DNA of 64,000 nt. Source: an uncultured Acidobacteriota bacterium (GTDB lineage Bacteria > Acidobacteriota > Vicinamibacteria > Fen-336). A program made the position numbers and the translations under genes. The notes below the pieces were generated by a model. That model did not search any database. It worked only from the letters and a program-made list of their open reading frames with translations, and had not been told where the DNA came from. The stretch covers positions 875,781-939,780 of the forward strand of contig CAVXEA010000003.1 in NCBI GenBank assembly GCA_963760685.1. The letters run 5' to 3'. Every line of letters begins with the position of its first letter. Position 1 is the first letter of the stretch. Shown in pieces: positions 1 to 64,000 of the stretch.

Positions 1-63
1 GGGGGCCGCGGCGGCTTTGGCTTCGCGGACCCCGTCAGCTTCATCCCGTTGTTCGCTTGCCTC

Positions 64-81
64 TATGTCATGCCTGACATA
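64..81. promoter_or_regulatory. Inverted repeat TATGTCA-N4-TGACATA about 12 bp upstream of the toxin-antitoxin start. Candidate autoregulatory operator.
   Basis: Perfect 7-bp arms read directly; sits just 5' of the first TA gene. Confidence 0.4.
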
Positions 82-92
82 CGATAGCCGTT

Positions 93-431
93 GTGAGCCC
101 AAAGGACAAGCCCCTTGCCTGGCTCCACGAAGAAATCAAGAGCCCACCGCTGGGTCAGGCGGCGAGGATTGAGGCAGGCTACCTGCTCCGTGAACTCCAG
201 AGGGGCAGGGGTCTGGGCATGCCTCACTCGCGGCCCATGCCTGGTATTGGGCCGCGGTGTCATGAGTTGAGAGTGACGGACCAACACGAGACTTGGCGGA
301 TCATCTACAGGGTGGATGCCGACGCGATTGTCATCGTCGAGGTATTTGCCAAGAAGACCGCGCAGACGCCGCAGGGTGTGCTGGAGACGTGTCGGAAGAG
401 ACTGAAGGAATACGACGATGCGACCAAGTAA
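93..431 (+). CDS. Type II toxin, RelE/HigB-like (Gp49/DUF891-like killer protein)
   Basis: 112 aa. Its C-terminus (...IVIVEVFAKKTAQTPQGVLETCRKRLKEY) is typical of HigB/RelE-fold toxins. GTG start. Overlaps the downstream HTH gene by 14 nt. Confidence 0.6.
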   Translation: MSPKDKPLAWLHEEIKSPPLGQAARIEAGYLLRELQRGRGLGMPHSRPMPGIGPRCHELRVTDQHETWRIIYRVDADAIVIVEVFAKKTAQTPQGVLETCRKRLKEYDDATK

Positions 432-741
432 GCGGCAGAAGCTTGAGCGGAAGGGTTGGCGAATCGGGAGTGTGCGGGACTTTCTTGGCCTTTCTGATGA
501 AGAGGCGGCGTACGTCGAGCTCCGTCTACGGTTGGCAGACAGCCTGAAGAACAGGCGGACCAGGCGGAACCTCACACAGGCGGCATTTGCCAAGTTGATC
601 CAGTCCAGCCAGTCAAGGGTAGCCAAAATGGAGGGTGGCGATCCATCGGTCTCGCTGGACTTGTTGATTCGGTCCCTGTTGGCCCTCGGCGCATCGAGCC
701 GTGACCTGGCGCGCACCATATCCACGGCTTCAGTTCCCTAG
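418..741 (+). CDS. XRE-family HTH antitoxin (HigA-like)
   Basis: 107 aa with HTH motif RRNLTQAAFAKLIQSSQSRVAKME; toxin-first HigBA arrangement. Confidence 0.6.
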   Translation: MRPSKRQKLERKGWRIGSVRDFLGLSDEEAAYVELRLRLADSLKNRRTRRNLTQAAFAKLIQSSQSRVAKMEGGDPSVSLDLLIRSLLALGASSRDLARTISTASVP

Positions 742-749
742 GTCAAGCG

Positions 750-812
750 AACACCGAGATCAGCTGCGAGGGCCGCGGCCGCTATGACCGACGCGGACCT
801 CGTCAGCTGCAT
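750..812. repeat. REP-like imperfect palindromic element, copy A (AACACCGAGATCAGCTG ... CGTCAGCTGCAT)
   Basis: Internal inverted repeat CAGCTGCGAGG / CCTCGTCAGCTG. Same terminal motifs as copy B at 2730-2787; CGTCAGCTKCAT also occurs at 33-44. Confidence 0.5.
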
Positions 813-893
813 TGATGAGATGGACTCCTCCACCGACTCGATCGGCATCGATGTGCCTGAGTCGGTGCTTGGTAAGCAATGGAGGAGCCCATC

Positions 894-1925
894 ATGCAGA
901 ACGATACTCGTATCGCCGTGGACGTGGCAAAGAGCGTGTTCGAGATCGCAGTGTCGGATCGACCTGGGCATGTCGTCCGCCGGGAACGTCTGCCTCGCGC
1001 CCAGTTCCTGGAGTTCTTCGCCAACAACCCAGCCGCCACCGTGTTCATGGAGGCCTGTGGCTCGGCTCACTTCTGGGGACGCCGGATTCAGGATCTCGGC
1101 CATCGGGTGATCCTCATGCCCCCTCATCACGTCCGTCCCTATATCCGAGGCAACAAGACCGATCGTACCGATGCCAAGGGCATCCTGGAAGCCAGCCGTA
1201 ACGAAGACATTCATCCTGTCCCCGTGAAGACCGTGGCCCAGCAGGTCCTGACCTCGCTCCACCGGATGCGCTCGGCCTGGATGACCGAGCGGACGGCCCG
1301 CCTCAATACCCTGCGGGGGCTGCTGCGCGAGCTGGGCGTCTTCATCCCGGTGGGCGCTCGCCAGGTGGTGCCCGCGGTGTGGGCCCTCCTCGAGGACGCA
1401 GACTCGGACCTGCCCGCTGCCCTACGGCCTCTCTTCGCCGAGGCCTGTCACGAGATTCGCGACATCGAGGCGCGCATCAAGGAGGTCGAGGTCCGCCTGG
1501 AGACGATGGCCAAGGAACTCCCGGTCGTGGGGTACCTCCGCACCATTCCCGGCATCGGGCTTCTCACCGCCACCGCCCTCTGGTGCTTCATCGGAGACAT
1601 CCATCGGTTCCCGACTGGTCGCCACCTGGCCAGCTACCTCGGTCTCACTCCGCGGGAGTTCTCGAGCGGACTCAAACGAAATCTGGGTCGCATCTCCAAG
1701 CGCGGTGACGGCTACCTCCGCACCCTCCTCATCCACGGTGCCCGCTCCGTCCTTCTCCACGCCCGCACCAAGCAGCCGGATCGTCTGCGGGAGTGGGCGA
1801 ACAAGCTCGCTCAGACTCACGTCCACAACAAGGCCGCCGTGGCCGTGGCCAACAAGATGGCCCGCATCGTATGGGCCGTCTGGAGCCGACTCACCCCGTT
1901 CACAGAGATCCAGAAGGCTGCGTAG
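894..1925 (+). CDS. IS110-family transposase (DEDD recombinase; Transposase_20 C-terminal domain)
   Basis: 343 aa. N-terminus TRIAVDVAKSVFEIAV, C-terminus LRTIPGIGLLTATALWCFIGDIHRFPTGRHLASYLGLTPREFSSG ... ISKRGDGYLR. GGAGGAG RBS 6 nt upstream of the ATG. Confidence 0.9.
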   Translation: MQNDTRIAVDVAKSVFEIAVSDRPGHVVRRERLPRAQFLEFFANNPAATVFMEACGSAHFWGRRIQDLGHRVILMPPHHVRPYIRGNKTDRTDAKGILEASRNEDIHPVPVKTVAQQVLTSLHRMRSAWMTERTARLNTLRGLLRELGVFIPVGARQVVPAVWALLEDADSDLPAALRPLFAEACHEIRDIEARIKEVEVRLETMAKELPVVGYLRTIPGIGLLTATALWCFIGDIHRFPTGRHLASYLGLTPREFSSGLKRNLGRISKRGDGYLRTLLIHGARSVLLHARTKQPDRLREWANKLAQTHVHNKAAVAVANKMARIVWAVWSRLTPFTEIQKAA

Positions 1926-2279
1926 ATACGAACGGCCTACGACCACGGCGCATTGATGAAAGGAGTTCTCGCCCAGGGCTGCAAGCGTAAAGTCGCGTGA
2001 CGGCAGAACAGGTCGGACCGGCGCAGGGACAGCCGATAACAACTTGTGGCCTTCGAGGCCGCTGCATCGATTGGCTCCCTGCGCGCGGATTCCGTCATGG
2101 CCCGGAGCCCTCGGGGGCTCCTTCAATGAGGCCGGAGATACGTCTGCAGTCCGCCCCGTTCCCAACACGCGACTCGCTTCCCGCCACGGCTCGACTATGA
2201 AGAAAGCAAACGGCTAGCGATTTCTCACTTGACAGGAGGAGTCCAGATACTCGTTGTTGGACGGCATGTGCTCTCGGTT
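1926..2279 (+). ncRNA. Candidate IS110-family bridge/seek RNA in the 3' non-coding tail
   Basis: Non-coding 350 bp directly downstream of the recombinase, with a strong hairpin GGAGCCC-TCG-GGGGCTCC near 2102-2125. Position matches ncRNAs of IS1111-type elements. Structure not modelled. Confidence 0.35.
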
Positions 2280-2711
2280 TCAATTCGAGCGAGCCTCGCA
2301 AGGGACAATCAGACAGCAAGCGAGCTCCGATTCCTGCCACTCCCCACTGGGCAGCCTGGTGTATGACACGCACCCCTTTTCGTTCGCCACACGTTCGACT
2401 ACCAAGCCCTCCCACCGGATGCGACGCTGCCTAGCAATCGCTTCGACGAATACCACCGGTACACCTCTTGAGGAGTCTTCCACGCGAAGATCGCGCCAAA
2501 TCTCGCGAATCTCCGTAAGTAGTGGCTCCGGAACGGACGCGTCCGTCTGGTACTCGAACCACACATAGCGCGACTCCGCCGATCCGACGACCGCCTGTGC
2601 GGTCACTTCAACAACCCGACCTGACGACAGTGCACGTGGCTTCGCCTGCCGATGATCAGGCAACGTACAACTAAGCGATAAGGCCGTGAAGAGCACGACG
2701 ATCCGTCTCAT
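2280..2711 (-). CDS. Small secreted lipoprotein, hypothetical
   Basis: 143 aa with signal peptide plus lipobox MRRIVVLFTALSLSC. Confidence 0.5.
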   Translation of the reverse strand: MRRIVVLFTALSLSCTLPDHRQAKPRALSSGRVVEVTAQAVVGSAESRYVWFEYQTDASVPEPLLTEIREIWRDLRVEDSSRGVPVVFVEAIARQRRIRWEGLVVERVANEKGCVSYTRLPSGEWQESELACCLIVPCEARSN

Positions 2712-2729
2712 CGGGATTGATGTCCGTCC

Positions 2730-2787
2730 AACACCGAGATCAGCTGGGAACGCGACCGTCGTCGGCCGCGCGTTTCGTCAGCTGCAT
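2730..2787. repeat. REP-like palindromic element, copy B
   Basis: Starts AACACCGAGATCAGCTG and ends CGTCAGCTGCAT, like copy A. Internal repeat CAGCTGGGAACGCG / CGCGTTTCGTCAGCTG. Confidence 0.5.
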
Positions 2788-2841
2788 CTCGTTGTTCTAC
2801 GGCGCGCCCATGATACCCGCTCCACGAGTAGCGTCTCGATC

Positions 2842-3261
2842 CTAGTATGAGCGAATGGTGAAGAAGGATCCGCCCTCGCGAATACACTGGACGCGCCCAG
2901 TGCGGTCGAAGATGACAAGGCCGTCATTGGCGAACCAATGGCTATAGATCCACGCCTCTCCGACAGGCTGAGTCCTGCAGCCCTCTTCGGGCCGGGCCCT
3001 GTCTGCCCACACCTGCCCGTCGATGTCGCGCGTGGAGGGTGGCCCTAGTCGCTGCAGCACCACGGCGCTCGAGTCTGAGCGGGCGATGGCGGCGGCAACG
3101 CCACTTGGTCTACCACCGTACACGGCAAAGCCCACCAGCCCAGCTACGCCGAGGGTAGGGATGACCCAACACGCCAGAACGATGACCCAGAACATCATCC
3201 GAACCGTCGGCCTGGCAGGAGACGGCCTGAGACGTTCGGGTTCGCCGTGCGCCTCTTCCAC
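2842..3261 (-). CDS. Hypothetical small membrane protein
   Basis: 139 aa with one clear TM helix (MMFWVIVLACWVIPTLGVAGLVGFAVY); ORF only. Confidence 0.35.
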   Translation of the reverse strand: MEEAHGEPERLRPSPARPTVRMMFWVIVLACWVIPTLGVAGLVGFAVYGGRPSGVAAAIARSDSSAVVLQRLGPPSTRDIDGQVWADRARPEEGCRTQPVGEAWIYSHWFANDGLVIFDRTGRVQCIREGGSFFTIRSY

Positions 3262-3754
3262 GCGTCGCTCTCAGTTCACACGTCCGTAGAACACGGGATT
3301 AAGCTGCGGCCGCGCGTCCAGTTTGCCGTCGCGCGGCCGTCAGCTCCTGAGAAATGAGTTGTCAAGAGAATACTCTTCCCGCGCGCCCGCGCAATCACTT
3401 GCAACGGGCGAATGTTGACACGTGCGAGAGAGCTCGTCCTGGAGGCATCGGCCCACGCGAATGGTTCGATGAGGGCTGGTCCCACGACGACGTCTGGTAG
3501 CGATCGGCCAACCTCGACCTGCTCGACCTTAAAGCCGTTGGTGCGATCTCCCGCAGTGCGGGCGCGCCAAGCTCCTGACTGGGCCTCTGTGGGCCAAGGC
3601 TTTAGTCGGCACTCCGAGGGGGCATAACCTTCAATCGGGGTCTTCCCGTCGCGTCCAGGTGACCAGCTGACAGCTGGATGCTCTCCCTCGAACCTTTCTC
3701 GAGCAGCAACGGTGGACCTGCTTCCAGACCTCGTCGCCTCACGCCTGAGACTCT

Positions 3755-4753
3755 CTAAGGCTGTTCGACGACCGCGTGCCGCTTCGAGTCGTACACCTCC
3801 TGGTGTTTCCACATCGAGAGCACCGTCGCAGCGATGCGTCGGGCCAGGGTCAATCGCGCCAGAGGCGGCTTGATCCCCTTCTCGATCATTCGCTGGTAGT
3901 GGGCGTGCAGCGGATCGTCGGGCAACTGCGTGATCACCGTCATCGCCGCACCCTTGAACACAGACTTCAACAGAGGCTGGCGTTTCCGGCTCAAGCCGCG
4001 GGTGGACAGGTTCTGTGACCGCTCCAGGCCACCCTTCCTCCCCGGTCTCCAGTCTGCAGACGAGCGCGTGACGATCCCGAGCCCGCAGTAGCTCCAGAAC
4101 TGTTGCCGAGTCCGGAATCGATCGGGCACCGCCACGATCGCGACCACCTGCGCCGTCCGAATGGGACCCAATCCTGGCGCCGTTAGCAGTCTCCGGATGA
4201 TCGGATGCGACTTCGACTCCGTCAGCAGCCAACGCTCCGCTTCGTCTCGTGCAGGCACCACCAGATCCAGTTGCCGCGCCAGAATCTCCGCAAGCTGCCG
4301 GTAGGGGCCACTCAACCTTGCCAGCCATCCATCCCGGCGTTCCGGGTCGTAGACCCCAGCATCCGCGACGATCCCTCGCCCCAGGAACACCGCCTTCAAC
4401 CGATTCTTGGCACGCACCACGTCGGTGACCGCGAAGTTGTACGCGCGCACTGCCGTACGCAGTGCCGCCAGGTGATTCGGTGCCTTGAAGACCCGCGTCT
4501 CCACCGCCCCCACTCGAAGCTCCTCCGCTCGTGCGAACGCGCGCTTGATCCAGGCGACGTAGGCTTTCTCGGTGCGGGGACTGTAGTGGCGAGTCCGAAT
4601 CGCCGCCCGCACTCGATCGAGGAGTCGCACTGGAGCGGGCGGGATGACGCGCGTGACCGACCTGCCGCCGGAACCAAGCTCGGACGAGTCGTCAGGAGGG
4701 ACCGCGAGTCCCGGTCTGTGGCTTGAAGGTGGTTGGGGCCTGCTTTCCCGCAC
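3755..4753 (-). pseudogene. Chimeric or degenerate ORF: tyrosine-recombinase (integron-integrase-like) N-terminal SAM domain fused to an IS110 transposase C-terminal domain; lacks the DEDD catalytic N-terminus
   Basis: N-terminus LLDRVRAAIRTRHYSPRTEKAYVAWIKRAF matches the IntI/Phage_int_SAM_4 motif RxxHYSxRTExAYVxW. C-terminal half (IIRRLLTAPGLGPIRTAQVVAIVAVPDRFRTRQQFWSYCGLGIVTRSSADW) is IS110 Transposase_20. Confidence 0.6.
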
Positions 4754-54739: not shown

Positions 54740-54825
54740 CCGGCCTCGGTCCTCCACCATCCGAGTCGCCCCGCCGCGGCATGTCGTGGATTGACAAGGT
54801 AGCCTCCGGAAGCTACCTTTGGCCC

Positions 54826-55753: not shown

Positions 55754-56206
55754 TCACTGGATTCGCATCCTGCCGCTGAATCCTTCTTCGTGGGTATGGA
55801 AGAACTGGAGCGCCGTCTCGGGCCAGCGCCAGCAGTAGTAGCCGGAGCCGTTGTCGAAGTCGACGAGCCAGATGCCCTTGACCTCGATGCCGAAAGACCT
55901 CACCCGGCCCGCCCACTCGTTGACGATGATCGTGGCCTGGGCCTCGAAGCGCTCGGCATCGAGCTTTCCCTCCCCGACCGCGCTGCGCAGGTCCTCGACT
56001 TCCTGGTGCGCCTTCTCCGTGAGCTGACGCACCTCGGGAAGCAAGGCTGCCGCCTCCTCGTAGGAGAATGTGCGCTTTTCGGCGATTCCGCGATCCGCCA
56101 GGGGCCACCTCGCTTCGCGTCCGCGCGCCGCGCGTTCGCGACCGGCGGGAGTATAGCAAAGCTTGACCCCCTGGGAGGCCAGCCATAGACTTCCGCGGAT
56201 GGCCAC
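55754..56206 (-). CDS. DUF2203-like conserved hypothetical protein
   Basis: ...ATIIVNEWAGRVRSFGIEVKGIWLVDFDNGSGYYCWRWPE... Start is likely downstream of the annotated M. Confidence 0.45.
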   Translation of the reverse strand: MAIRGSLWLASQGVKLCYTPAGRERAARGREARWPLADRGIAEKRTFSYEEAAALLPEVRQLTEKAHQEVEDLRSAVGEGKLDAERFEAQATIIVNEWAGRVRSFGIEVKGIWLVDFDNGSGYYCWRWPETALQFFHTHEEGFSGRMRIQ

Positions 56207-59200
56207 CTCGTGGCACCTGACCTCTTTGACGGTCCTCGGGGGAACGCTTCACGGTAAGAAGCTCGCCATCGAAGACGTGGTGGTCGAAGTCCTGATCGGC
56301 TCCGATCCCGACTGCCACCTGCACCTCGACCTTCCGACTGTGAGCCCCATCCACGCCCGGCTCTGGATCGAGCCCGACGACGTGACGGTCTACGGGACGA
56401 AGAGCGGCCCCGGCGTCTTCGTCAACTTCGATCGGATCGACGGCGACGGAAAGCTGCAGCCGGGCGACTTGCTGTGGCTCGGGCCACCGCAGGCGGCCGG
56501 GAGCGTGATGCTCCAGGTCCGCTTCGAAGAGCGCGACACCCTGCCTTCGGTCGTGGTCAGCCCTCTCGCCGACGAGGACCAGGCGGCCGGGGCGCCGGAC
56601 CCGACCCCCGACGTCGCGGAGCCGGGTCCGATTCCCCTGTCGGTCTCGGTGGAGCCGATGCCCGCCGAGGCGAAGGTGGACGCGGAATCGAAGCCGGACC
56701 GCGCGGCGGAGGCCTCAGACGAAGAGCTCGGCGTGTTGCCCGAGGACGCGCCCCCGCCGTTGCAGATCGCACTGCACGCGGAAGAGCCCGAAGCATCGAG
56801 CCCGCCGATTCCCGCGCCGCTCCTGGAGACGCCGGCACTCCCGGCGGCCGCGCCCAGCGGGTTCGAGGACTTCCTGGTCATGGACTCGGCAGCCTCGGCT
56901 CCGACTTCGTTCGCCGCGTCCGCCGACGAGTTCGTGGTTTCGGGCTTCGAGGCCGAGTGGCCGGAGGCCAGCGAGCCCAAGGGTGGCGCCGCGTCCGAGG
57001 ATCGCGGGGCGCCGGTGCCCGAGGCTCGACCGGATCCTCCACCAGCCCCGCTCGCGAACGACGACGTCTTCTTCGTCGACGTCGGCGCTCAGCCGCCGCA
57101 GGTCGCCGAGGAGGCGGAGAGCCACGACGGGTTCTTCATCGACGACGGCATCGCCCCGGCCCCCCCCGCGGCCATGCCGGCCACCCCGCCCCGTATCGCG
57201 GCCCCGGGAGCCGACCAGGATCTGTCCTTCGCGGCCGCCTTCCTCGAAGAGCCTCTGCCCAAGGCCAAGCCGCCGTCCCCGCCGCCTGCCCCTGCACCGC
57301 GTCCAGCCGCTCCCTCTCCACCCCCCGTGGCCAAGCCGGCGCCCGCCGCCCCCAAGCCGGCGCCCGTCCCGCGGCCTTCCGAGCCGGCGCCGCCCAAGCC
57401 CTCGCCCGCGGTGTCGCAAGCCGTGGCCTCCCCGGCGCTTCCTCCGCGGCCGCCCTCGGCCACGAGCGCCGTGCGCCCCCTTCCGCGTCCAGATGTTTCC
57501 CAGTCGGTCGCGCGCGGCGACCGGCCGCCGGTGCCCCGCGCCGATCGCACCCAGGCCTTGCGGGCCCGGCCCCCGGCTCGCCCGCTCGGCCGCTACGCCT
57601 TGCTCGGCCTGATCGCCGTGGTCGTCCTCGGCGGGATCGGGTTTGTCGTGTCGACCTTCCTGCGCGGCGTGCGCCTCGAAAGGATCGAGCCGCAGCGCGC
57701 TCGGGTCGGCGAGACCGTGGCCCTCGTCGGCAGTGGATTCGCGAGCTCGCCGGGAGACAATGCGGTGCTCTTCGACGACAAGCCGGCCAGTGTGACCACC
57801 GCCGCTCCCACGCGCCTGGAGGTCGTGGTGCCGGACGTCGCCCCGAGCGGCACCGACGTCAAGGCCGCGGTTCGGGTGCGGGTGGGCCGCGCCGAGTCGC
57901 TGACCGTCGCGATGTCGGTCTTCTCGGGCCCCGTCCTGCACGGGATCTCACCGGACGTGGCCATGCCGGGCGACGAGGTCGTTCTCGCCGGCTCGGGTTG
58001 GGGTCTTGGCCCCACGGTCCGTTTCGGAGGCTTGCCTGCGGATGTGATGGAAGCCCGCGAGACCTCGATCCGCGTGCGGGTCCCCGCCATCGACGGGGGC
58101 CCCGGGACCTCGGCCCCGGTGGTGGTCAGCTCCGGCTTGCTCGAGTCGAACCCCGGGCCTTTCTACGTCGGACGCATTCCCCTGGTCACCAGGGCCGAGC
58201 CGACGAGCGTGGCCGCGGGGGACGTCGTGACCCTGAGTGGCCGTGGCTTCCGTCGCGAGCGCTCGCAGAACGTGGTCCAGGTCGGGGGGGTGCGGGCCCT
58301 CGTGGTCGCCGCTTTCGACAGCGAGATCAAGGTCGTGGTGCCTCGCGTGGCGGCAGGGTCTCGCCTGTTGGAGGTGCGCGTTCCGAGCTCGGTGGCTCCA
58401 GCCCAGGTTCCGCTCGTGGTGAGCGGGGCGACGGAGGCCCTCGATTTCCATTTCGTCGCGGAGCCATTCGAGGCCGCGCCGGGGCGTGACCACGCGGTGC
58501 TCGCCACCGCCCTCGGGCCCGCTTTCGTCCTCGCGTCGTCGGGCGGCCGCTCCGCCGCCGAGCGCGCATTGGAAGCGGCTCGCCGACTCAACGAAGCGGC
58601 CCCGGCCCTCAAGGCGGCGCCCGATCTCACGTTCGAGTTGCGGGACGCCGACTCGAAGCCTTCCCTGGGCCTCATCGGCCGGCCCGAGATCCTGATCGAG
58701 GTCACCGACGAGGACGCCGTCGCCTACGCCGAGGATTGGACCGGCCTCCGCGGGCGCGGCGGAGCCGTGACTTCGGGTCGCCTGGGAAAATGGTGGGAGG
58801 CGGTCGCCAGGGACCTCGCGCTCCTGCTGGTCCGCCGGGCGCGGCCTCATTTCGCGGCCGACCTCGCCCCCGAAGGGCGAGCTCTCGTGGACTTCTTCCA
58901 GGCTTCTGAGCGCGGTGGCGGCGCCGGAGCCTCGGCCAAGCCTCCGCTCCGCGACGCGCTCCGGCTCGTGGCGCTCCGCGTTCCTCCCGGGGTTCGGGGG
59001 CCCGTGATGGTGGCTCCGGTCTCCGGGTCCAGCCCGACGGCCTCCGGAACGCCCCCGTCGTCCGTCGCCCAGCCGATGCCACGTCTCGAAGGGCCTTGGA
59101 CCGGCACCGAGACCGAAGGCGACCGACAGCGGTACGTGACCGTGACCTTCCGCGGCGCGACGGGCACCCTCGCCTACGAGAGTGCCATGACCGTGAGCAC

Positions 59201-59375
59201 TCCCCTCCTGAGCGTCGACCAGCCGCAGCGGGGAGTGGCGCGGTTCAGCGTCGAGCTGCGCGGGGGGCTCCGCTACTACGTCGGCCGCTGGGAGGGCCAG
59301 GCCCTCTCCGGCAAGATCTCGACGGATCCGGGCGGTTCGCAGAGCCTTGGCACCTTCGAACTCCGCCCCCGATAA
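56199..59375 (+). CDS. FHA-domain membrane protein: FHA - Pro/Ala-rich linker - TM - 4x IPT/TIG-like - C-terminal domain
   Basis: FHA segment LTVLGGTLHGKKLAIEDVVVEVLIGSDPDCHLHL ... VSPIHARLWIE ... GTKSGPGVFVN. TM YALLGLIAVVVLGGIGFVVSTFL. Repeated RIEPQRARVGETVALVGSGF / ISPDVAMPGDEVVLAGSGW / EPTSVAAGDVVTLSGRGF modules. Uninterrupted 3.2-kb frame. Confidence 0.75.
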   Translation: MATSWHLTSLTVLGGTLHGKKLAIEDVVVEVLIGSDPDCHLHLDLPTVSPIHARLWIEPDDVTVYGTKSGPGVFVNFDRIDGDGKLQPGDLLWLGPPQAAGSVMLQVRFEERDTLPSVVVSPLADEDQAAGAPDPTPDVAEPGPIPLSVSVEPMPAEAKVDAESKPDRAAEASDEELGVLPEDAPPPLQIALHAEEPEASSPPIPAPLLETPALPAAAPSGFEDFLVMDSAASAPTSFAASADEFVVSGFEAEWPEASEPKGGAASEDRGAPVPEARPDPPPAPLANDDVFFVDVGAQPPQVAEEAESHDGFFIDDGIAPAPPAAMPATPPRIAAPGADQDLSFAAAFLEEPLPKAKPPSPPPAPAPRPAAPSPPPVAKPAPAAPKPAPVPRPSEPAPPKPSPAVSQAVASPALPPRPPSATSAVRPLPRPDVSQSVARGDRPPVPRADRTQALRARPPARPLGRYALLGLIAVVVLGGIGFVVSTFLRGVRLERIEPQRARVGETVALVGSGFASSPGDNAVLFDDKPASVTTAAPTRLEVVVPDVAPSGTDVKAAVRVRVGRAESLTVAMSVFSGPVLHGISPDVAMPGDEVVLAGSGWGLGPTVRFGGLPADVMEARETSIRVRVPAIDGGPGTSAPVVVSSGLLESNPGPFYVGRIPLVTRAEPTSVAAGDVVTLSGRGFRRERSQNVVQVGGVRALVVAAFDSEIKVVVPRVAAGSRLLEVRVPSSVAPAQVPLVVSGATEALDFHFVAEPFEAAPGRDHAVLATALGPAFVLASSGGRSAAERALEAARRLNEAAPALKAAPDLTFELRDADSKPSLGLIGRPEILIEVTDEDAVAYAEDWTGLRGRGGAVTSGRLGKWWEAVARDLALLLVRRARPHFAADLAPEGRALVDFFQASERGGGAGASAKPPLRDALRLVALRVPPGVRGPVMVAPVSGSSPTASGTPPSSVAQPMPRLEGPWTGTETEGDRQRYVTVTFRGATGTLAYESAMTVSTPLLSVDQPQRGVARFSVELRGGLRYYVGRWEGQALSGKISTDPGGSQSLGTFELRPR

Positions 59376-61741
59376 CCCGCCCGCCCCGCGCCCTCCGGGG
59401 CAGGCCCTGATCGGCGAGCACATCGGTCACTATCGCGTCGTCCTGGCGCCTCGGGCAGGGAGGCATGGGCGAGGTCTTCCTGGCCGAGGACATGACCCTT
59501 CGCCGCCAGGTCGCCCTGAAGGTCTGCGCGGCCGAGGAGGCGGGCGAGCGGCTCCTCCACGAGGCCCGTGCCGCTTCGGCGCTCGTGCACCCCAACATCG
59601 CCGTGGTGTACGAGGTGGGGAGCTTCGAGCGCGACGGACGCGAGCAGACTTACATCGCCATGGAGTACGTGCCCGGCCGTACCCTCGCGCGGCTCGCCCA
59701 GGAGCGCGAGCTCGCTCCGGGCGAGGTCCTCGACATCGTGGGCCAGGTGGTCGAGGCCTTGACCGCCGCTCACGCCCACGGCGTCGTCCACCGCGACATC
59801 AAGCCCTCGAACGTCATGGTGACCGAGGATGGCCGGGTCAAGGTCCTCGACTTCGGCCTCGCCAAGCACGTGCCGTTCGTGGGCGAGTCGGCCGACACGT
59901 GGAGCGGGCAAGGCCGCCTGTCGGAGGCGACGGGCGCGCTCGTCGGCACCGCGGCCTACATGTCACCCGAGCAGGTGAAGGGCCTGGACGTGGACGCCCG
60001 GAGCGACATCTTCTCCCTGGGAGTCCTGCTCTACGAGCTTCTCGCCGGGGGACGCCCCTTCGCGGGCGAGACCGCGGTGGAGGTCCTCGGCGCCGTGCTG
60101 CACCTCGATCCTGCGCCGCTCGAGGTCGCCGCGCTGCCCGGCCTCGAGCGCGTGGTCCTGAGGATGCTGTCCAAGGACCGGGAGCAGCGGTTCGCCAGCA
60201 TGGCCGAGGTCGGCGAGGCCCTCGCGGAGGTGCGTCGCGGGTCTTCGCCGCGCGAAGACGCGCCGGCGAGCCCGACTCCGACCGTGGCCGCGATCCGCTT
60301 CACCAACATCACCGGCCGCCCGGAGGACGACTGGCTGGGCACGGGGATCGCGGAGACCCTGATGTCCGACCTGAAGGTCCGGGAGGGGTTGAGCCTCGTC
60401 TCGCGCGAGCGGACGCATGGAGGTGCTGCGGAAGCTCGGGGCGCGGGGCGTGCGCGAGGAATCGCTGGCCCTGGCCCTCGGGCCGGGAGGTCGGCGCGCG
60501 CTTCGTGGTGAGCGGCGGGTACCAGCGGCAGGGCGAGGAGATCCGCGTCACCGTACGCGTCACGGAGATCGCGACCGGCGCGGTCGCGGGCACGTCGAAG
60601 GTCGACGGCCGCATGGGAGAGATCTTCGAGCTGCAGGACCGCATCGCCCAGGGCGCTGCGTCGCTTCTCCGGGTCAGCGTGGCCCCGCCCTCGCGGCGGG
60701 CCGGGAACGACACCGAGGTCCTCGAGGCCTACGAGGCCTACTCCCGCGGCCTCGTGTTCCTGCGGGCGGAGAGCCACGAGTCGCTGGACCGCGCGCTCGA
60801 GTCGTTCGATCGGGCGATCCATCTGGATCCGGCCTACGCGAAGGCGCACATGCAGCGGGGCGTGGCCCTGGCCGTGAAGGCCGGCCACCTGGGGCGCCCG
60901 GATCTCTACGAGCCCGCGCTTCAGAGCCTGCGCAAGGCCACCGAGCTCCGACCCTCGCTGGCCGAGGCCTGGCGGGAGCTCGGGGCCACCCTCGTCTATA
61001 CGCGCGAGGACGAAGCCGTCGAGGCCATCGAGCGCGCCCTCACCCTCGAGCCGGGAGACGCGAGCGCGCATGCCGCCCTGGCGCGGGCCTTCTTCATCGG
61101 GAAAGGGGACTTCGCGCGGGCGGCGGTCGAGTACGAGCGGGCCCTGCTCCTGAACCCACAGGCCGGGTGGACCGCGTTGCAGCTCGCCCACTGCGCGGCG
61201 TTCCTGGGCGAGTACGCCCGCGGGGAAGCGATCGCGCGGCGCGCCATCGTCCTTCAGGAGGAGCTGCTCGCCGGGCCAGGAGGGGCTCTTGATCATCGGC
61301 GCCTACCTCCGCCTCGGCCACCTCCACGCTCTCCAGGGCAGATACGCGGAGGCGAAGACCCAGTTCGAGCGCGAGATCGAGTTCCTCGGGCGGGTGGACC
61401 ATGCCTTGAAGGCGCGCATCTTCATCGAGCTCCACACCCGTCTGGGGGCCGCCCTGCCTGGGCCTCGGCGACGAGGCCGGCGGCCGCGCCACCCTCGACC
61501 TCGCCATCGGGACCTTCGAGCGCCGACTGCGCCTCGAGGGCGACGACCCTTTCACCCGCTACTACGCGGCTTGCGCGCACGCCCTGCGGGGCGATCGTGG
61601 GTCGGCCCTCGACAGCCTCGAGAAGGCGGCGGCCGGGCGCCGCGCTTTCACGCTCGCCCGGGCCAGGATCGATCCGCTGTTCGACACGCTGCGCACGGAG
61701 CCGCGGTTCCTGAGCCTGATCGGTCCCGCCAGTCGCCGCTA
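59347..61741 (+). pseudogene. Ser/Thr kinase with C-terminal periplasmic-like domain and TPR repeats; at least 4 frameshifts
   Basis: Kinase domain GMGEVFLAEDMTLRRQVALKV ... HRDIKPSNVMV ... DFGLAK ... GTAAYMSPE. Then FTNITGRPEDDWLGTGIAETLMSDL ... RFVVSGGYQRQGEEIRVTVRVTE. Then TPR blocks AYAKAHMQRGVAL ... AEAWRELGATL. C-terminus ...IDPLFDTLRTEPRFLSLIG. Confidence 0.7.
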
Positions 61742-61855
61742 ATCCTAATCTCTCGTCAACCCAGCGTTCCTTGGTTGACGCTTTTCAGATACATGAACAT
61801 CCCAGTTTACGTATCCTGTTCGCCACGTTTGGATAGAGAATGAACCAAAACCGAC

Positions 61856-61883
61856 TTGACAAATCGATCATAGTGCCTATCTT
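61856..61883 (+). promoter_or_regulatory. Near-consensus sigma70 promoter TTGACA-N16-TATCTT in an AT-rich island
   Basis: Perfect -35 hexamer, 16-nt spacer, TATCTT -10, about 80 nt upstream of the ATG at 61963. Confidence 0.5.
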
Positions 61884-61962
61884 CAAACTACTGAACCAAC
61901 CAACCGAGTCGCACTTTCTTGGGGGAAGTCCGCAGGGACTCGTAATTAGAGGGGGAGAAGTT

Positions 61963-62202
61963 ATGCGGCGTGCCATGATCGCTCTTGTCGGGGCAGCGGC
62001 TTTGGTGATCCTTAGCATGTCAATTTCCGCCTTTGCGAGCACAGCGTGCAAAGAGTGTAAATTGCAGACGGAGGGGCGTTTTCATGGAACGTACACCTGC
62101 ATTTTCAGCGAGGATCATTGCGACTGCAATCCCGATGGCGAATCGTGCGTTGAGACTTCCGGTTGTAATGGGCCAGACCACATTTGCGTCTACAGTGAGT
62201 AG
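61963..62202 (+). CDS. Small secreted cysteine-rich protein (8 Cys in about 54 mature residues)
   Basis: Signal peptide MRRAMIALVGAAALVILSMSISAFA. Mature part STACKECKLQTEGRFHGTYTCIFSEDHCDCNPDGESCVETSGCNGPDHICVYSE. AGGGGGAG RBS 6 nt upstream. Locally low GC. Confidence 0.6.
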   Translation: MRRAMIALVGAAALVILSMSISAFASTACKECKLQTEGRFHGTYTCIFSEDHCDCNPDGESCVETSGCNGPDHICVYSE

Positions 62203-62208
62203 AGGTCC

Positions 62209-64000
62209 ATGTCCCGCCGTCCTGCGTTCACGTTGGTGCTTCTTCTCCTGGCCTCCGCGAAGAGCGCAGCGGCCCAGCCAAACGTCGTCAATGTCAGCCT
62301 AGTCGGTCCCGACCAGAGCGCGATAAGCGGCCGAGTCACCGCTGAGCCGGTTGCGAGCGCGGTTCAACTCCGACCGGAGACATTCAATGTAGGCACGGTG
62401 GGTGGGCGGGTGACGCTGCACCTGAGACCGGGGCTCTGGCGACTCACGGCCGAGGCCACAGGCTGGTGGGTTCTACCTAAGGAGGTCCAAGTCGGCGCGA
62501 GCCTGCCGGAGCTGAATATAGGGCTGCGGGCTTGGCCGGCGGCCAAGATCAGGGTCCCTCTCCGGTCGCCGCCGCCTGAGCTACGCGTTCCGGTCGTCCG
62601 ACTCGTTCTCCGGCCCGAGGGTGCAACGGCGAGGGATTCGGCCACGGAATGGGAGGCGGCAGCCACCTGCCCACCGGTTGGTTTGGCCTGGGTATGTGAC
62701 GTGCCCGCGGCGCGCCTCGACCTGCAGCTGCGACCGAAGGGCTTCGTTCCTGTTTATTTGTGGGGTGTGGTTCCTGAACGAGGATCAACCACAGTTCTTG
62801 CCCCCGTTGCCTTGCGCCGCGGCCCATCGATCTCGGGCTGGGTACACGACCGGGCCAATCGTCCCGCAGGCGGCGCGAGCGTCGCCCTGACCAGCCCCGA
62901 CAGCGCAACGTGCTGTGCACCCGACGACAGTGCGCGTTCTGATCGAGTTGCGAGTCCACCTGAGCGGTCAAACGCCCGAGGCTTCTTCCAGCTGGCTCCC
63001 GCGCCTCTCGGCGAGCTGTGGCTGATAGCACGCCTAAGCGACCTCAGAAGCGTTCCAATGAGAATCGACCTGAAAGAGCCGGACGTGGAGATCAGCCTCC
63101 TCGATCCGCTCGTTCTGCAGCCCCCCGCGAGTTTGCTCGTCCACGCTCAGCCGCCGTTCGATCCTTCAGGGATGCCCTGGAAAGTGCGGGTACGGGCGCT
63201 CCAACCCAAGAACCGGGCCACCGTCATCGCTCGAAACGCTCCTATGTCCCGCGATGGTGAGTGGCAACGCGACGGACTAGCTGCAGGCGAATACAGCGTC
63301 GCCTTGGTCACGCGGGACGACGCGGTTTGGCGTGAGGAAGTGATTACACTCGAGCCGGGCCTACGCGAGGTAACTCTCGACACGAACGTGTTTCGCGTGA
63401 AGGGAAGCGTCTCGATGGGTCGTGCCGCTCTCGGGAAGGCCAAGGTTGTCCTGAGTTCCGGCCGTTTGAAAGCGTCCTTCTCAGCGAACGAGCAGGGAGA
63501 GTTCGAGGGCGATTTGCCCTTCCGCCTCGACCCAGAAGCATCAGTCACGGCGATGGTGACGACGGCGGACCCAGCCGTCGAGTATATAACCATGGCCGAG
63601 GTCGAGGGTGACAGTTCCGAAGCCTTCGTGCGGATACGCTTGGCCAACGGCGGCATTGAAGGCCGCGTGCTGGGCCCGAACGGGATGCCCTGGCAGGGCA
63701 AGGCTTCGATCATCGTGAGTGGCCTTTCCAGAGATTCGTCCCCCAGCACACAAGTGTCCATGGGGCCCTCCGAGGAGGGGCGGTTCCGACTGCGCGGCCT
63801 CGAGCCCGGTCAATACAAGATAGAGGCACTGTCGGCGCCCAGACTCGAATGCGAGAGCTTGACGGTTGACGTGACATCGGACGACCCTCGGAATATCGAG
63901 CTGCAACTCAAGGAACCACTGCAGATTAGCGGAACCGTTGCGGGCGCCGAAGGGTTGGGGATCGCCGCGGCGGAAGTGACCGCGTACGGCTCCAATCAGA
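62209..64000 (+). CDS. Large secreted protein with tandem carboxypeptidase-regulatory-like (CarboxypepD_reg) beta-sandwich repeats; 3' end beyond the window
   Basis: Open frame from the ATG at 62209 to the window end (at least 597 codons, hand-translated, no stop). It is absent from the ORF track because it has no stop. Signal peptide MSRRPAFTLVLLLLASAKSAAAQP. Repeats ISGRVTAEP.., ISGWVHDRANRPAGGASVALTS, VKGSVSMGRAALGKAKVVLSSG, IEGRVLGPNGMPWQGKASIIVSG, ISGTVAGAEGLGIAAAEV. GAGG RBS 7 nt after the upstream stop. Confidence 0.7.
   Translation, partial: MSRRPAFTLVLLLLASAKSAAAQPNVVNVSLVGPDQSAISGRVTAEPVASAVQLRPETFNVGTVGGRVTLHLRPGLWRLTAEATGWWVLPKEVQVGASLPELNIGLRAWPAAKIRVPLRSPPPELRVPVVRLVLRPEGATARDSATEWEAAATCPPVGLAWVCDVPAARLDLQLRPKGFVPVYLWGVVPERGSTTVLAPVALRRGPSISGWVHDRANRPAGGASVALTSPDSATCCAPDDSARSDRVASPPERSNARGFFQLAPAPLGELWLIARLSDLRSVPMRIDLKEPDVEISLLDPLVLQPPASLLVHAQPPFDPSGMPWKVRVRALQPKNRATVIARNAPMSRDGEWQRDGLAAGEYSVALVTRDDAVWREEVITLEPGLREVTLDTNVFRVKGSVSMGRAALGKAKVVLSSGRLKASFSANEQGEFEGDLPFRLDPEASVTAMVTTADPAVEYITMAEVEGDSSEAFVRIRLANGGIEGRVLGPNGMPWQGKASIIVSGLSRDSSPSTQVSMGPSEEGRFRLRGLEPGQYKIEALSAPRLECESLTVDVTSDDPRNIELQLKEPLQISGTVAGAEGLGIAAAEVTAYGSNQ

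Follow-up and report, generated by a model that had tools for sequence, protein, structure and literature searches.

In a 64,000-nucleotide stretch of DNA from an uncultured Acidobacteriota bacterium (GenBank assembly GCA_963760685.1, contig CAVXEA010000003.1, positions 875,781 to 939,780 of the forward strand), which as a whole is called the window here, we found a pair of adjacent genes that is a conserved operon module of the Acidobacteriota. The first gene encodes a small precursor whose mature part, here called the miniprotein, carries eight cysteines, and the second encodes a large protein composed of beta-sandwich modules. A small cysteine-rich open reading frame (ORF) with a signal peptide lies directly upstream of a homologue of the large gene in 25 of the 28 loci that could be assessed, and a previous interpretation of the window made from its letters alone (the sequence-only reading), which had called the operon pairing unusual, therefore understated the case. 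The pair is a promoter-led, tightly coupled operon of two proteins that carry signal peptides and are predicted to be exported. Whether these form an extracytoplasmic complex, in which a beta-sandwich scaffold would be combined with a disulfide-stapled, tail-presenting miniprotein, we regard as evenly balanced.

Organisation of the operon

The elements of the module are the following.

61744-61962, + strand: AT-rich intergenic region of 219 nucleotides (nt); GC content 0.47, lower than anywhere else in the 64-kb window
61754-61780, + strand: terminator-like hairpin (inverted repeat with arms of 11 nt and a loop of 5 nt), then CTTTTC
61856-61883, + strand: sigma-70-type promoter-like site TTGACA-16-TATCTT, 10 of 12 positions matching
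61950-61957, + strand: Shine-Dalgarno-like sequence AGGGGGAG, 5 nt 5' of the ATG at 61963, as read from the sequence
61963-62202, + strand: gene of the 79-residue precursor, comprising a predicted Sec signal peptide and the miniprotein with 8 cysteines
62202-62205, + strand: GAGG ribosome binding site (RBS) of the large gene, overlapping the stop codon TAG of the small gene (62200-62202)
62209-64000, + strand: large gene, first 597 codons, open to the edge of the window; full product of 751 residues (P0002)

The sharp drop in GC content that the sequence-only reading had placed at 61741-61960 was confirmed, the mean of the window being 0.69 and that of the genes just upstream 0.72-0.73. The small ORF itself has a GC content of 0.53. 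Comparison with neighbouring genes puts the GC content at third codon positions (GC3) of the module far below theirs (0.61 for the small and 0.71 for the large gene versus 0.86-0.90). The hairpin begins 11 nt past the stop codon of the upstream kinase gene (61741-61743) and folds as RNA with -13.3 kcal/mol (z = -2.6); a strict terminator scan did not detect it, and as a terminator-like element it marks the upstream boundary of the module.

The promoter-like site ends 80 nt upstream of the ATG of the small ORF, and one site with such a match was found in 3 kb, where 0.3 were expected. It had been described as a textbook promoter, which is generous because the -10 hexamer TATCTT agrees with the consensus at only 4 of 6 positions. 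The wider pattern TTGACA-N16-18-TANNNT occurs twice in the window versus 0.06 expected; the sole other match (54791-54819, + strand, TTGACA...TACCTT) holds an inverted repeat GGTAGC...GCTACC in its spacer. The RBS that had been reported before the small ORF is present, and a GGAGG-type RBS precedes the small ORF in 12/12 loci examined. The overlap of the GAGG sequence with the small-gene stop codon is consistent with translational coupling. Both this RBS and the second frame had been noticed before, with a spacing of seven nucleotides; the gap to the ATG at 62209 is 6 nt, and the coordinates given earlier were off by one base, the content being as described. The 597 open codons up to the window edge were seen as reported, and the large gene is missing from the list of ORFs used at the time because ORFs running off the end of the sequence are omitted there. 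Folding of the 5' untranslated region gave no unusual structure (z +1.3), and a search of the whole window against Rfam gave no match.

Conservation of the gene pair

The assessable loci comprise the window, 11 loci obtained through protein matches and genome scans, and 16 metagenome loci. Most homologues of the large protein are 24-45% identical, and the ORFs paired with them have 6-8 cysteines. Every contig encoding one of the homologues P0003-P0008 (24-32% identity) has, directly upstream, a small ORF with a signal peptide and 7-8 cysteines. A scan of genome contigs with P0002 alone gave no match, the source genome thus not being one of the species representatives scanned. The seven sequences of alignment A1 had diverged too far to yield a search pattern; a four-sequence alignment (A4) served for the genome scan, which yielded five further full-length relatives, all with the small ORF and all in metagenome-assembled genomes labelled Acidobacteriota or Thermoanaerobaculia. 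The metagenome scan added 17 loci, 13 of them with the small ORF (three truncated by contig ends), three without it (L021, L027 and L032) and one, L023, that was not assessable. The gap between small and large gene measures 2-36 nt in 8 of 10 loci.

The same ORF filter returned only the miniprotein ORF in the 64-kb window, and in a 278-kb control it gave elsewhere only out-of-frame junk rich in Arg, Pro, Ala and Gly. The large proteins cluster according to the type of miniprotein with which they are paired, and the module is therefore inherited and evolves as a unit. Two loci have tandem miniprotein genes before one large gene, namely L009 (585-893 and 903-1208) and the metagenome locus L016 (2919-3281 and 3239-3658).

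The cysteine-rich miniprotein

The precursor of 79 residues with a mature part of 54 residues and 8 cysteines, as described in the sequence-only reading, is present. Its predicted signal peptide covers residues 1-25 (61963-62037), is of the n-h-c type and ends in a signal-peptidase-type site between AFA and ST, and the mature part (62038-62199) has a net charge of -7 and a tail of 4 residues, VYSE, past the last cysteine. Export through the twin-arginine translocation (Tat) pathway was rejected on reading the leaders, since the Tat consensus does not continue after their RR and KK stands in one paralogue. An identical protein, P0001, is encoded in an independent short-read (Logan) assembly and is on record only from there, and the NCBI annotation of the source genome is apparently without the gene.

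Used alone as a query in a word-indexed search, the 79-residue protein matched only itself. A profile search of all 1.84 billion representative proteins brought about 9 genuine clusters and two further matches that turned out to be repeat artefacts. Homologues share the cysteine core, and the absence of such homologues, which the sequence-only reading had named as grounds for abandoning its view, was thus not found. In the family alignments A2 and A3 this core has C-x2/3-C close to the N-terminus of the mature part. A variable stretch separates it from two or three central cysteines, which often form C-x-C, and these are followed by two cysteines 3-6 residues apart at the C-terminus and by a free tail of 2-7, mostly 3-4, residues that is usually aromatic or aliphatic. 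Members have 6-8 cysteines in 50-90 residues; nearly every member has an even number of them, and the spacing varies between subfamilies. The mature peptide is anionic in 15 of 16 members, with net charges of -2 to -12.

The ratio of nonsynonymous to synonymous substitution rates (dN/dS) is 0.26 and 0.13 in two pairs of close homologues. The miniprotein is under purifying selection, and the small ORF is a real, selected gene. Four disulfides are most likely, because the cysteine count is even and the protein would be exported by the Sec route. Structure prediction, which had been suggested as a means of obtaining the disulfide pattern, was run with AlphaFold2 on a 14-sequence alignment; it gave a low-confidence model of the mature part (predicted local distance difference test, pLDDT, about 44) from which that pattern is not readable, with no helix and with the variable stretch weakly modelled as a hairpin.

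No Pfam or NCBIfam model matches the family, neither PADLOC nor PHROGs gave a match to the miniproteins, and the family profile run against all PDB chain sequences reached a best E-value of 0.8, with no inhibitor among the matches. A targeted search of the full-text literature brought no paper matching the family, and nothing relevant was found in the literature on the gene pair or on cysteine-rich proteins in Thermoanaerobaculia. The family appears to be undescribed.

The large protein

The full 3' end of the large gene, for which an extension of the contig had been advised, was obtained by a word-indexed protein search that retrieved the complete product, P0002, 100% identical over the part encoded in the window. 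Records of this protein exist at NCBI, ENA and Logan, in one case on a contig of 3.45 Mb, and its gene ends about 460 nt beyond the window. At 751 residues in full it is not the giant protein that had been announced. The predicted signal peptide covers approximately residues 1-22, and the AlphaFold2 model (pLDDT 74) shows about 8 all-beta modules with a transthyretin-like seven-stranded beta-sandwich fold. Pfam places two CarboxypepD_reg domains in P0002, as follows.

Residues 483-568 of P0002: CarboxypepD_reg domain
Residues 572-651 of P0002: CarboxypepD_reg domain, extending past the window end

Against CarboxypepD_reg (PF13620, gathering cut-off 32.3 bits) the whole of P0002 scores 93.5 bits (1e-26). 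When the modules were also scanned singly, 481-570 (33.2 bits) and 571-654 (37.3 bits) passed the cut-off, 204-300 gave a weak match (19.8 bits, E 0.001) and 301-392 a marginal one (13.4 bits, E 0.11), both below it, and the remaining four gave no match in this module-by-module scan. Of the earlier claim of a signal peptide followed by at least five tandem domains of this type, the signal peptide and the repeated all-beta architecture hold, but only two modules pass the Pfam threshold. Domains are thus recognised in the downstream ORF, the lack of which would have counted against the sequence-only reading, and the domain search that it had proposed found CarboxypepD_reg above the cut-off and no Plug or beta-barrel. 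The thioester motif CxEQ is absent from 7/7 members of the large family examined, and the large protein has no LPXTG motif, no PEP-CTERM signal and no hydrophobic segment besides the N-terminal signal peptide. We read it as soluble and presumably exported, a chain of beta-sandwich modules in which no catalytic site is evident; the domain name CarboxypepD_reg does not imply a carboxypeptidase function.

P0002 contains 7 cysteines. The pairs C155/C163 and C711/C727 are conserved in the family, a CC doublet at 234-235 (window 62908-62913) is non-conserved and lies in a low-confidence loop, and Cys 548 (window 63850-63852) stands single. The odd total could permit an intermolecular disulfide. On the Logan short-read contig, the order of genes is a 589-residue ORF fragment, the 79-residue gene, the 751-residue gene and then a gene of 201 residues, which starts 241 nt past the 751-residue gene and has a faint CarboxypepD_reg match.

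A PDZ gene accompanies one type of C-terminal tail

One subfamily of miniproteins, type B, ends in C-x3-C-x4-C-[Y/F/L/V]-x-[V/T/A]-COOH. In all type-B loci with visible downstream DNA (L002, L005, L011, L013, L017, L018, L025 and L026) the large gene is followed by a gene for a PDZ protein of about 130-145 residues with a signal peptide and a conserved PGWLGxG motif. The PDZ gene is located immediately 3' of the large gene, often overlapping it. Among the miniprotein-bearing loci, no locus outside type B, the window included, has a PDZ gene. A PDZ gene also lies directly downstream of the large gene at L021/L023; the upstream sequence of L021, which extends over 375 nt, contains no miniprotein gene.

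Locus L032 is syntenic with L013, with flanks of 88-91% nucleotide identity, and is without exactly the miniprotein and PDZ genes, which L032 has lost together. The large gene is kept, at 78.7% nucleotide identity, and has diverged more than the flanks. The segments concerned are given below.

L013 5448-5734 versus L032 3954-3961: miniprotein gene, absent in L032
L013 7980-8573 versus L032 6205-6417: PDZ gene, absent in L032

PDZ domains characteristically bind hydrophobic C-terminal tails, and the hydrophobic-x-[V/T/A] tails of type B fit a PDZ-type ligand. Because the presence of the PDZ gene tracks the tail type and PDZ domains bind such tails, we suggest that the miniprotein tail is a docking element. 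For the variant in the window, which ends in VYSE and has no PDZ gene, tail docking would be an extrapolation from its sister subfamily.

Genomic context and origin of the module

Upstream of the module, two genes follow each other on the same strand.

56163-59375, + strand: FHA/TIG protein gene, 1070 residues; N-terminal FHA domain, long Pro/Ala-rich linker, transmembrane segment and three IPT/TIG domains
59465-61743, + strand: Ser/Thr kinase-TPR gene, directly upstream of the module

Their arrangement resembles a transmembrane signalling pair. The kinase-TPR gene shows at least 3-4 frame changes (near 60420-60500, 61290 and 61460), and the Logan short-read contig has an uninterrupted 589-residue ORF ending at the stop codon of this gene, which suggests indel errors in the assembly of the window, or a pseudogene. 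Many other stop-to-stop segments of the window look broken as well. Other neighbouring genes are not conserved between loci; among their products are sigma-54 activators, a STAND regulator, UvrA, HEAT-repeat proteins and an M13 peptidase. The pair of TonB and a TonB-dependent receptor at L006 was considered as a conserved partner and rejected, being absent in the close relative L033.

The compositional contrast that had led to the proposal of horizontal acquisition is real. The GC3 deficit of the module also exists in L005, L013 and L014, and not in L004, L006 and L010. Because GC3 is low and synteny is not conserved, horizontal acquisition in this genome, and horizontal spread in general, is plausible, although not proven. 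No integrase was found among the ORFs sampled, the sole tRNA call in the window lies about 58 kb from the module, and the window stops short of the downstream boundary. This call, an ARAGORN tRNA-Val(TAC) at 3059-3154 (- strand), is unusually long with 96 nt, and Rfam at the gathering threshold reports no tRNA in the window. It is situated in a second stretch of lower GC content (positions 1-4000, 0.59-0.63 versus 0.69 for the window).

A putative extracytoplasmic complex and its alternatives

The reading that we put forward, at about an even chance, would work as follows. A single promoter in the AT-rich spacer would drive two translationally coupled genes. Their first product would be an acidic miniprotein, exported by the Sec route and about 54 residues long, whose 8 cysteines are most likely joined in four disulfides, and the second a Sec-exported, soluble string of 751 residues with about 8 transthyretin-like/CarboxypepD_reg modules, without anchor or catalytic motif. 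Outside the cytoplasm the two would most likely work together as a complex, with the large protein serving as a scaffold or spacer for the miniprotein, a ligand or cap that docks by its short free C-terminal tail. In the sister subfamily the same module would supply a third component, the small exported PDZ protein.

Several observations weigh against this reading. The confidence of the AlphaFold2 model of the mature miniprotein is too low for its fold or disulfide pattern to be taken from it, the module in the window lacks a PDZ gene, and the VYSE tail ends acidic, unlike the PDZ-linked type. Because L021, L027 and L032 keep the large gene without the miniprotein gene, the large protein may function alone. 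Furthermore, neither a conserved third gene nor any of the neighbourhoods examined supplies a functional anchor, and both the physical complex and the docking of the tail are things that we infer.

A more far-reaching version, which we hold only tentatively, sees in the module a new extracytoplasmic system in which the miniprotein tail is a plug-in ligand, which in one subfamily is read by a dedicated PDZ protein of the periplasm and in the others, the window included, by the large, rod-like protein through its C-terminal module; what is assembled would be a structure of the surface or the periplasm without a described counterpart. As a sub-case, the miniproteins could be the first bacterial tail-type carboxypeptidase inhibitors.

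That possibility can also be taken by itself. The miniprotein would then be a tail-docking protease inhibitor like the metallocarboxypeptidase (MCP) inhibitors PCI, LCI, TCI, ACI and NvCI, in which a compact disulfide-stapled core carries a C-terminal tail of 2-5 residues that enters the active site of the peptidase like a substrate, and the large protein would be its carrier or co-factor. Six to eight cysteines in 50-90 residues followed by a short, usually aromatic or aliphatic tail is indeed MCP-inhibitor architecture (PMC9966942), and genes for a serine carboxypeptidase (S10) and an M13 peptidase lie near L005 and L004. We nevertheless judge this unlikely, given the absence of any carboxypeptidase inhibitor among the PDB profile matches and of any Pfam match, the lack of a peptidase conserved across the neighbourhoods examined, and the identity of the conserved third gene, which, where present, encodes a PDZ protein and not a peptidase. 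That the MCP inhibitors treated in PMC9966942 all come from plants or animals counts against a bacterial one as well.

The sequence-only reading had favoured a knottin- or defensin-like peptide and a bacteriocin or other secreted effector. A secreted antimicrobial or toxin of this kind, with the large protein as accessory, carrier or immunity factor, would account for the finding, in a patch of foreign composition, of a strong promoter that precedes the gene of a small, exported and disulfide-rich peptide, and for the tandem duplicates in L009 and L016, as are often seen for toxin genes. The evidence makes it rather improbable. Against it stand the anionic character of 15/16 mature peptides (-7 in the window) and their cysteine patterns: when 16 mature members were tested, 0/16 fitted the cis-defensin pattern C-X(2,18)-C-X3-C-X(2,12)-C-X(4,17)-C-X-C (after PMC11561630), and 0/16 fitted the knottin pattern, that of the inhibitor cystine knot (ICK), C-X(3,7)-C-X(3,8)-C-X(0,5)-C-X(1,4)-C-X(4,13)-C, a consensus taken from general knowledge. 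The leaders are Sec-type with AXA cleavage sites and not double-glycine leaders, none of the locus neighbourhoods contains a gene for an ABC exporter or for a small immunity protein of the membrane, PADLOC and PHROGs gave no matches, and an exported protein of 750 residues would be atypical as an immunity factor. The bacteriocin, knottin and defensin-like claims therefore find no support.

Just as improbable in our view is a metal-binding or redox-active role of the cysteines, by which the miniprotein would bind or deliver metal in the periplasm and work with the beta-sandwich protein. Such a role is plausible in anaerobic Thermoanaerobaculia and agrees with the presence of CxxC and CxC motifs, with the nature of the only weak PDB matches (zinc-ribbon or PHD-type proteins, E about 1), with the TonB and receptor pair downstream in L006 and with an iron-dependent repressor gene adjoining L027. 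However, the PDB matches lack significance. Nearly all members have an even number of cysteines, and the spacing varies between subfamilies, where metal sites usually keep it; the close relative L033 no longer has the TonB link, and L027 has no miniprotein gene.

Finally, that the small ORF is non-functional or its adjacency fortuitous, as the apparent lack of an NCBI call, the Logan-only record of P0001 and the indel-like frameshifts elsewhere in the assembly of the window might suggest, is effectively refuted by conservation, with an identical ORF in an independent assembly, homologues in synteny that bear a signal peptide and conserved cysteines in 25/28 loci, purifying selection (dN/dS 0.13-0.26) and a strong RBS.

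Acidobacteriota are a major, poorly studied component of soil, and miniprotein genes are easily missed by annotation. The tight link of the miniproteins to a large beta-sandwich partner, together with a PDZ gene that in one branch tracks the tail motif, gives a testable hypothesis of tail-mediated docking, which bears on the abundant and opaque 'carboxypeptidase regulatory-like domain-containing' proteins of this phylum. Candidate cellular roles of the proposed complex are a surface structure, adhesion or envelope organisation. Should the miniproteins prove to be stable scaffolds held by disulfides, each with a defined tail for binding, they could interest engineers as scaffolds or inhibitors; should the module be no more than a structural part of the envelope, it adds modestly to the known protein families.

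Comparison with known systems

Among proteins with CarboxypepD_reg or transthyretin-like domains, the obvious comparators are the N-terminal extension of SusC/Oar-type TonB-dependent transporters and the C-terminal domain of carboxypeptidase D. In contrast to these, the large protein has no Plug, beta-barrel or M14 catalytic domain and consists only of about 8 beta-sandwich modules, four of which are unrecognised by Pfam. Its best relative of solved structure by sequence profile is NOMO, a subunit of the BOS complex in the lumen of the eukaryotic endoplasmic reticulum (9c7v_B, E 1.3e-18, 3 stretches). With the NOMO rod of tandem Ig-like/CarboxypepD_reg-type domains it shares the beads-on-a-string beta-sandwich architecture; NOMO, however, is eukaryotic, consists of 12 domains and is anchored in the membrane at its C-terminus, whereas the large protein is bacterial, has about 8 modules and has no anchor, and the similarity is at the domain level only. 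Gram-positive pilins, TIE proteins, SdrD B repeats (CnaB-type) and MG-domain proteins (bacterial alpha-2-macroglobulin) gave whole-chain TM-scores below 0.2, and unlike this group the large protein has no LPXTG or CxEQ motif and no sortase nearby.

With respect to the miniprotein, bacterial cis-defensins of the CS-alpha-beta type, such as xanthusin-1 and classes I-V (PMC11561630), are likewise small, signal-peptide-bearing and disulfide-rich. The miniproteins differ from them in lacking their defining cysteine pattern, in being anionic and in being tied to a large partner gene. In the MCP inhibitors, 2-5 residues past the last cysteine form a C-terminal tail on a disulfide-rich core (PMC9966942), and with PCI, LCI, TCI, ACI and NvCI the miniproteins have in common a small disulfide-rich core and a short free tail, VYSE in the window. 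They are set apart from these inhibitors by the lack of a sequence relationship, by their bacterial origin and by the lack of a conserved peptidase partner.

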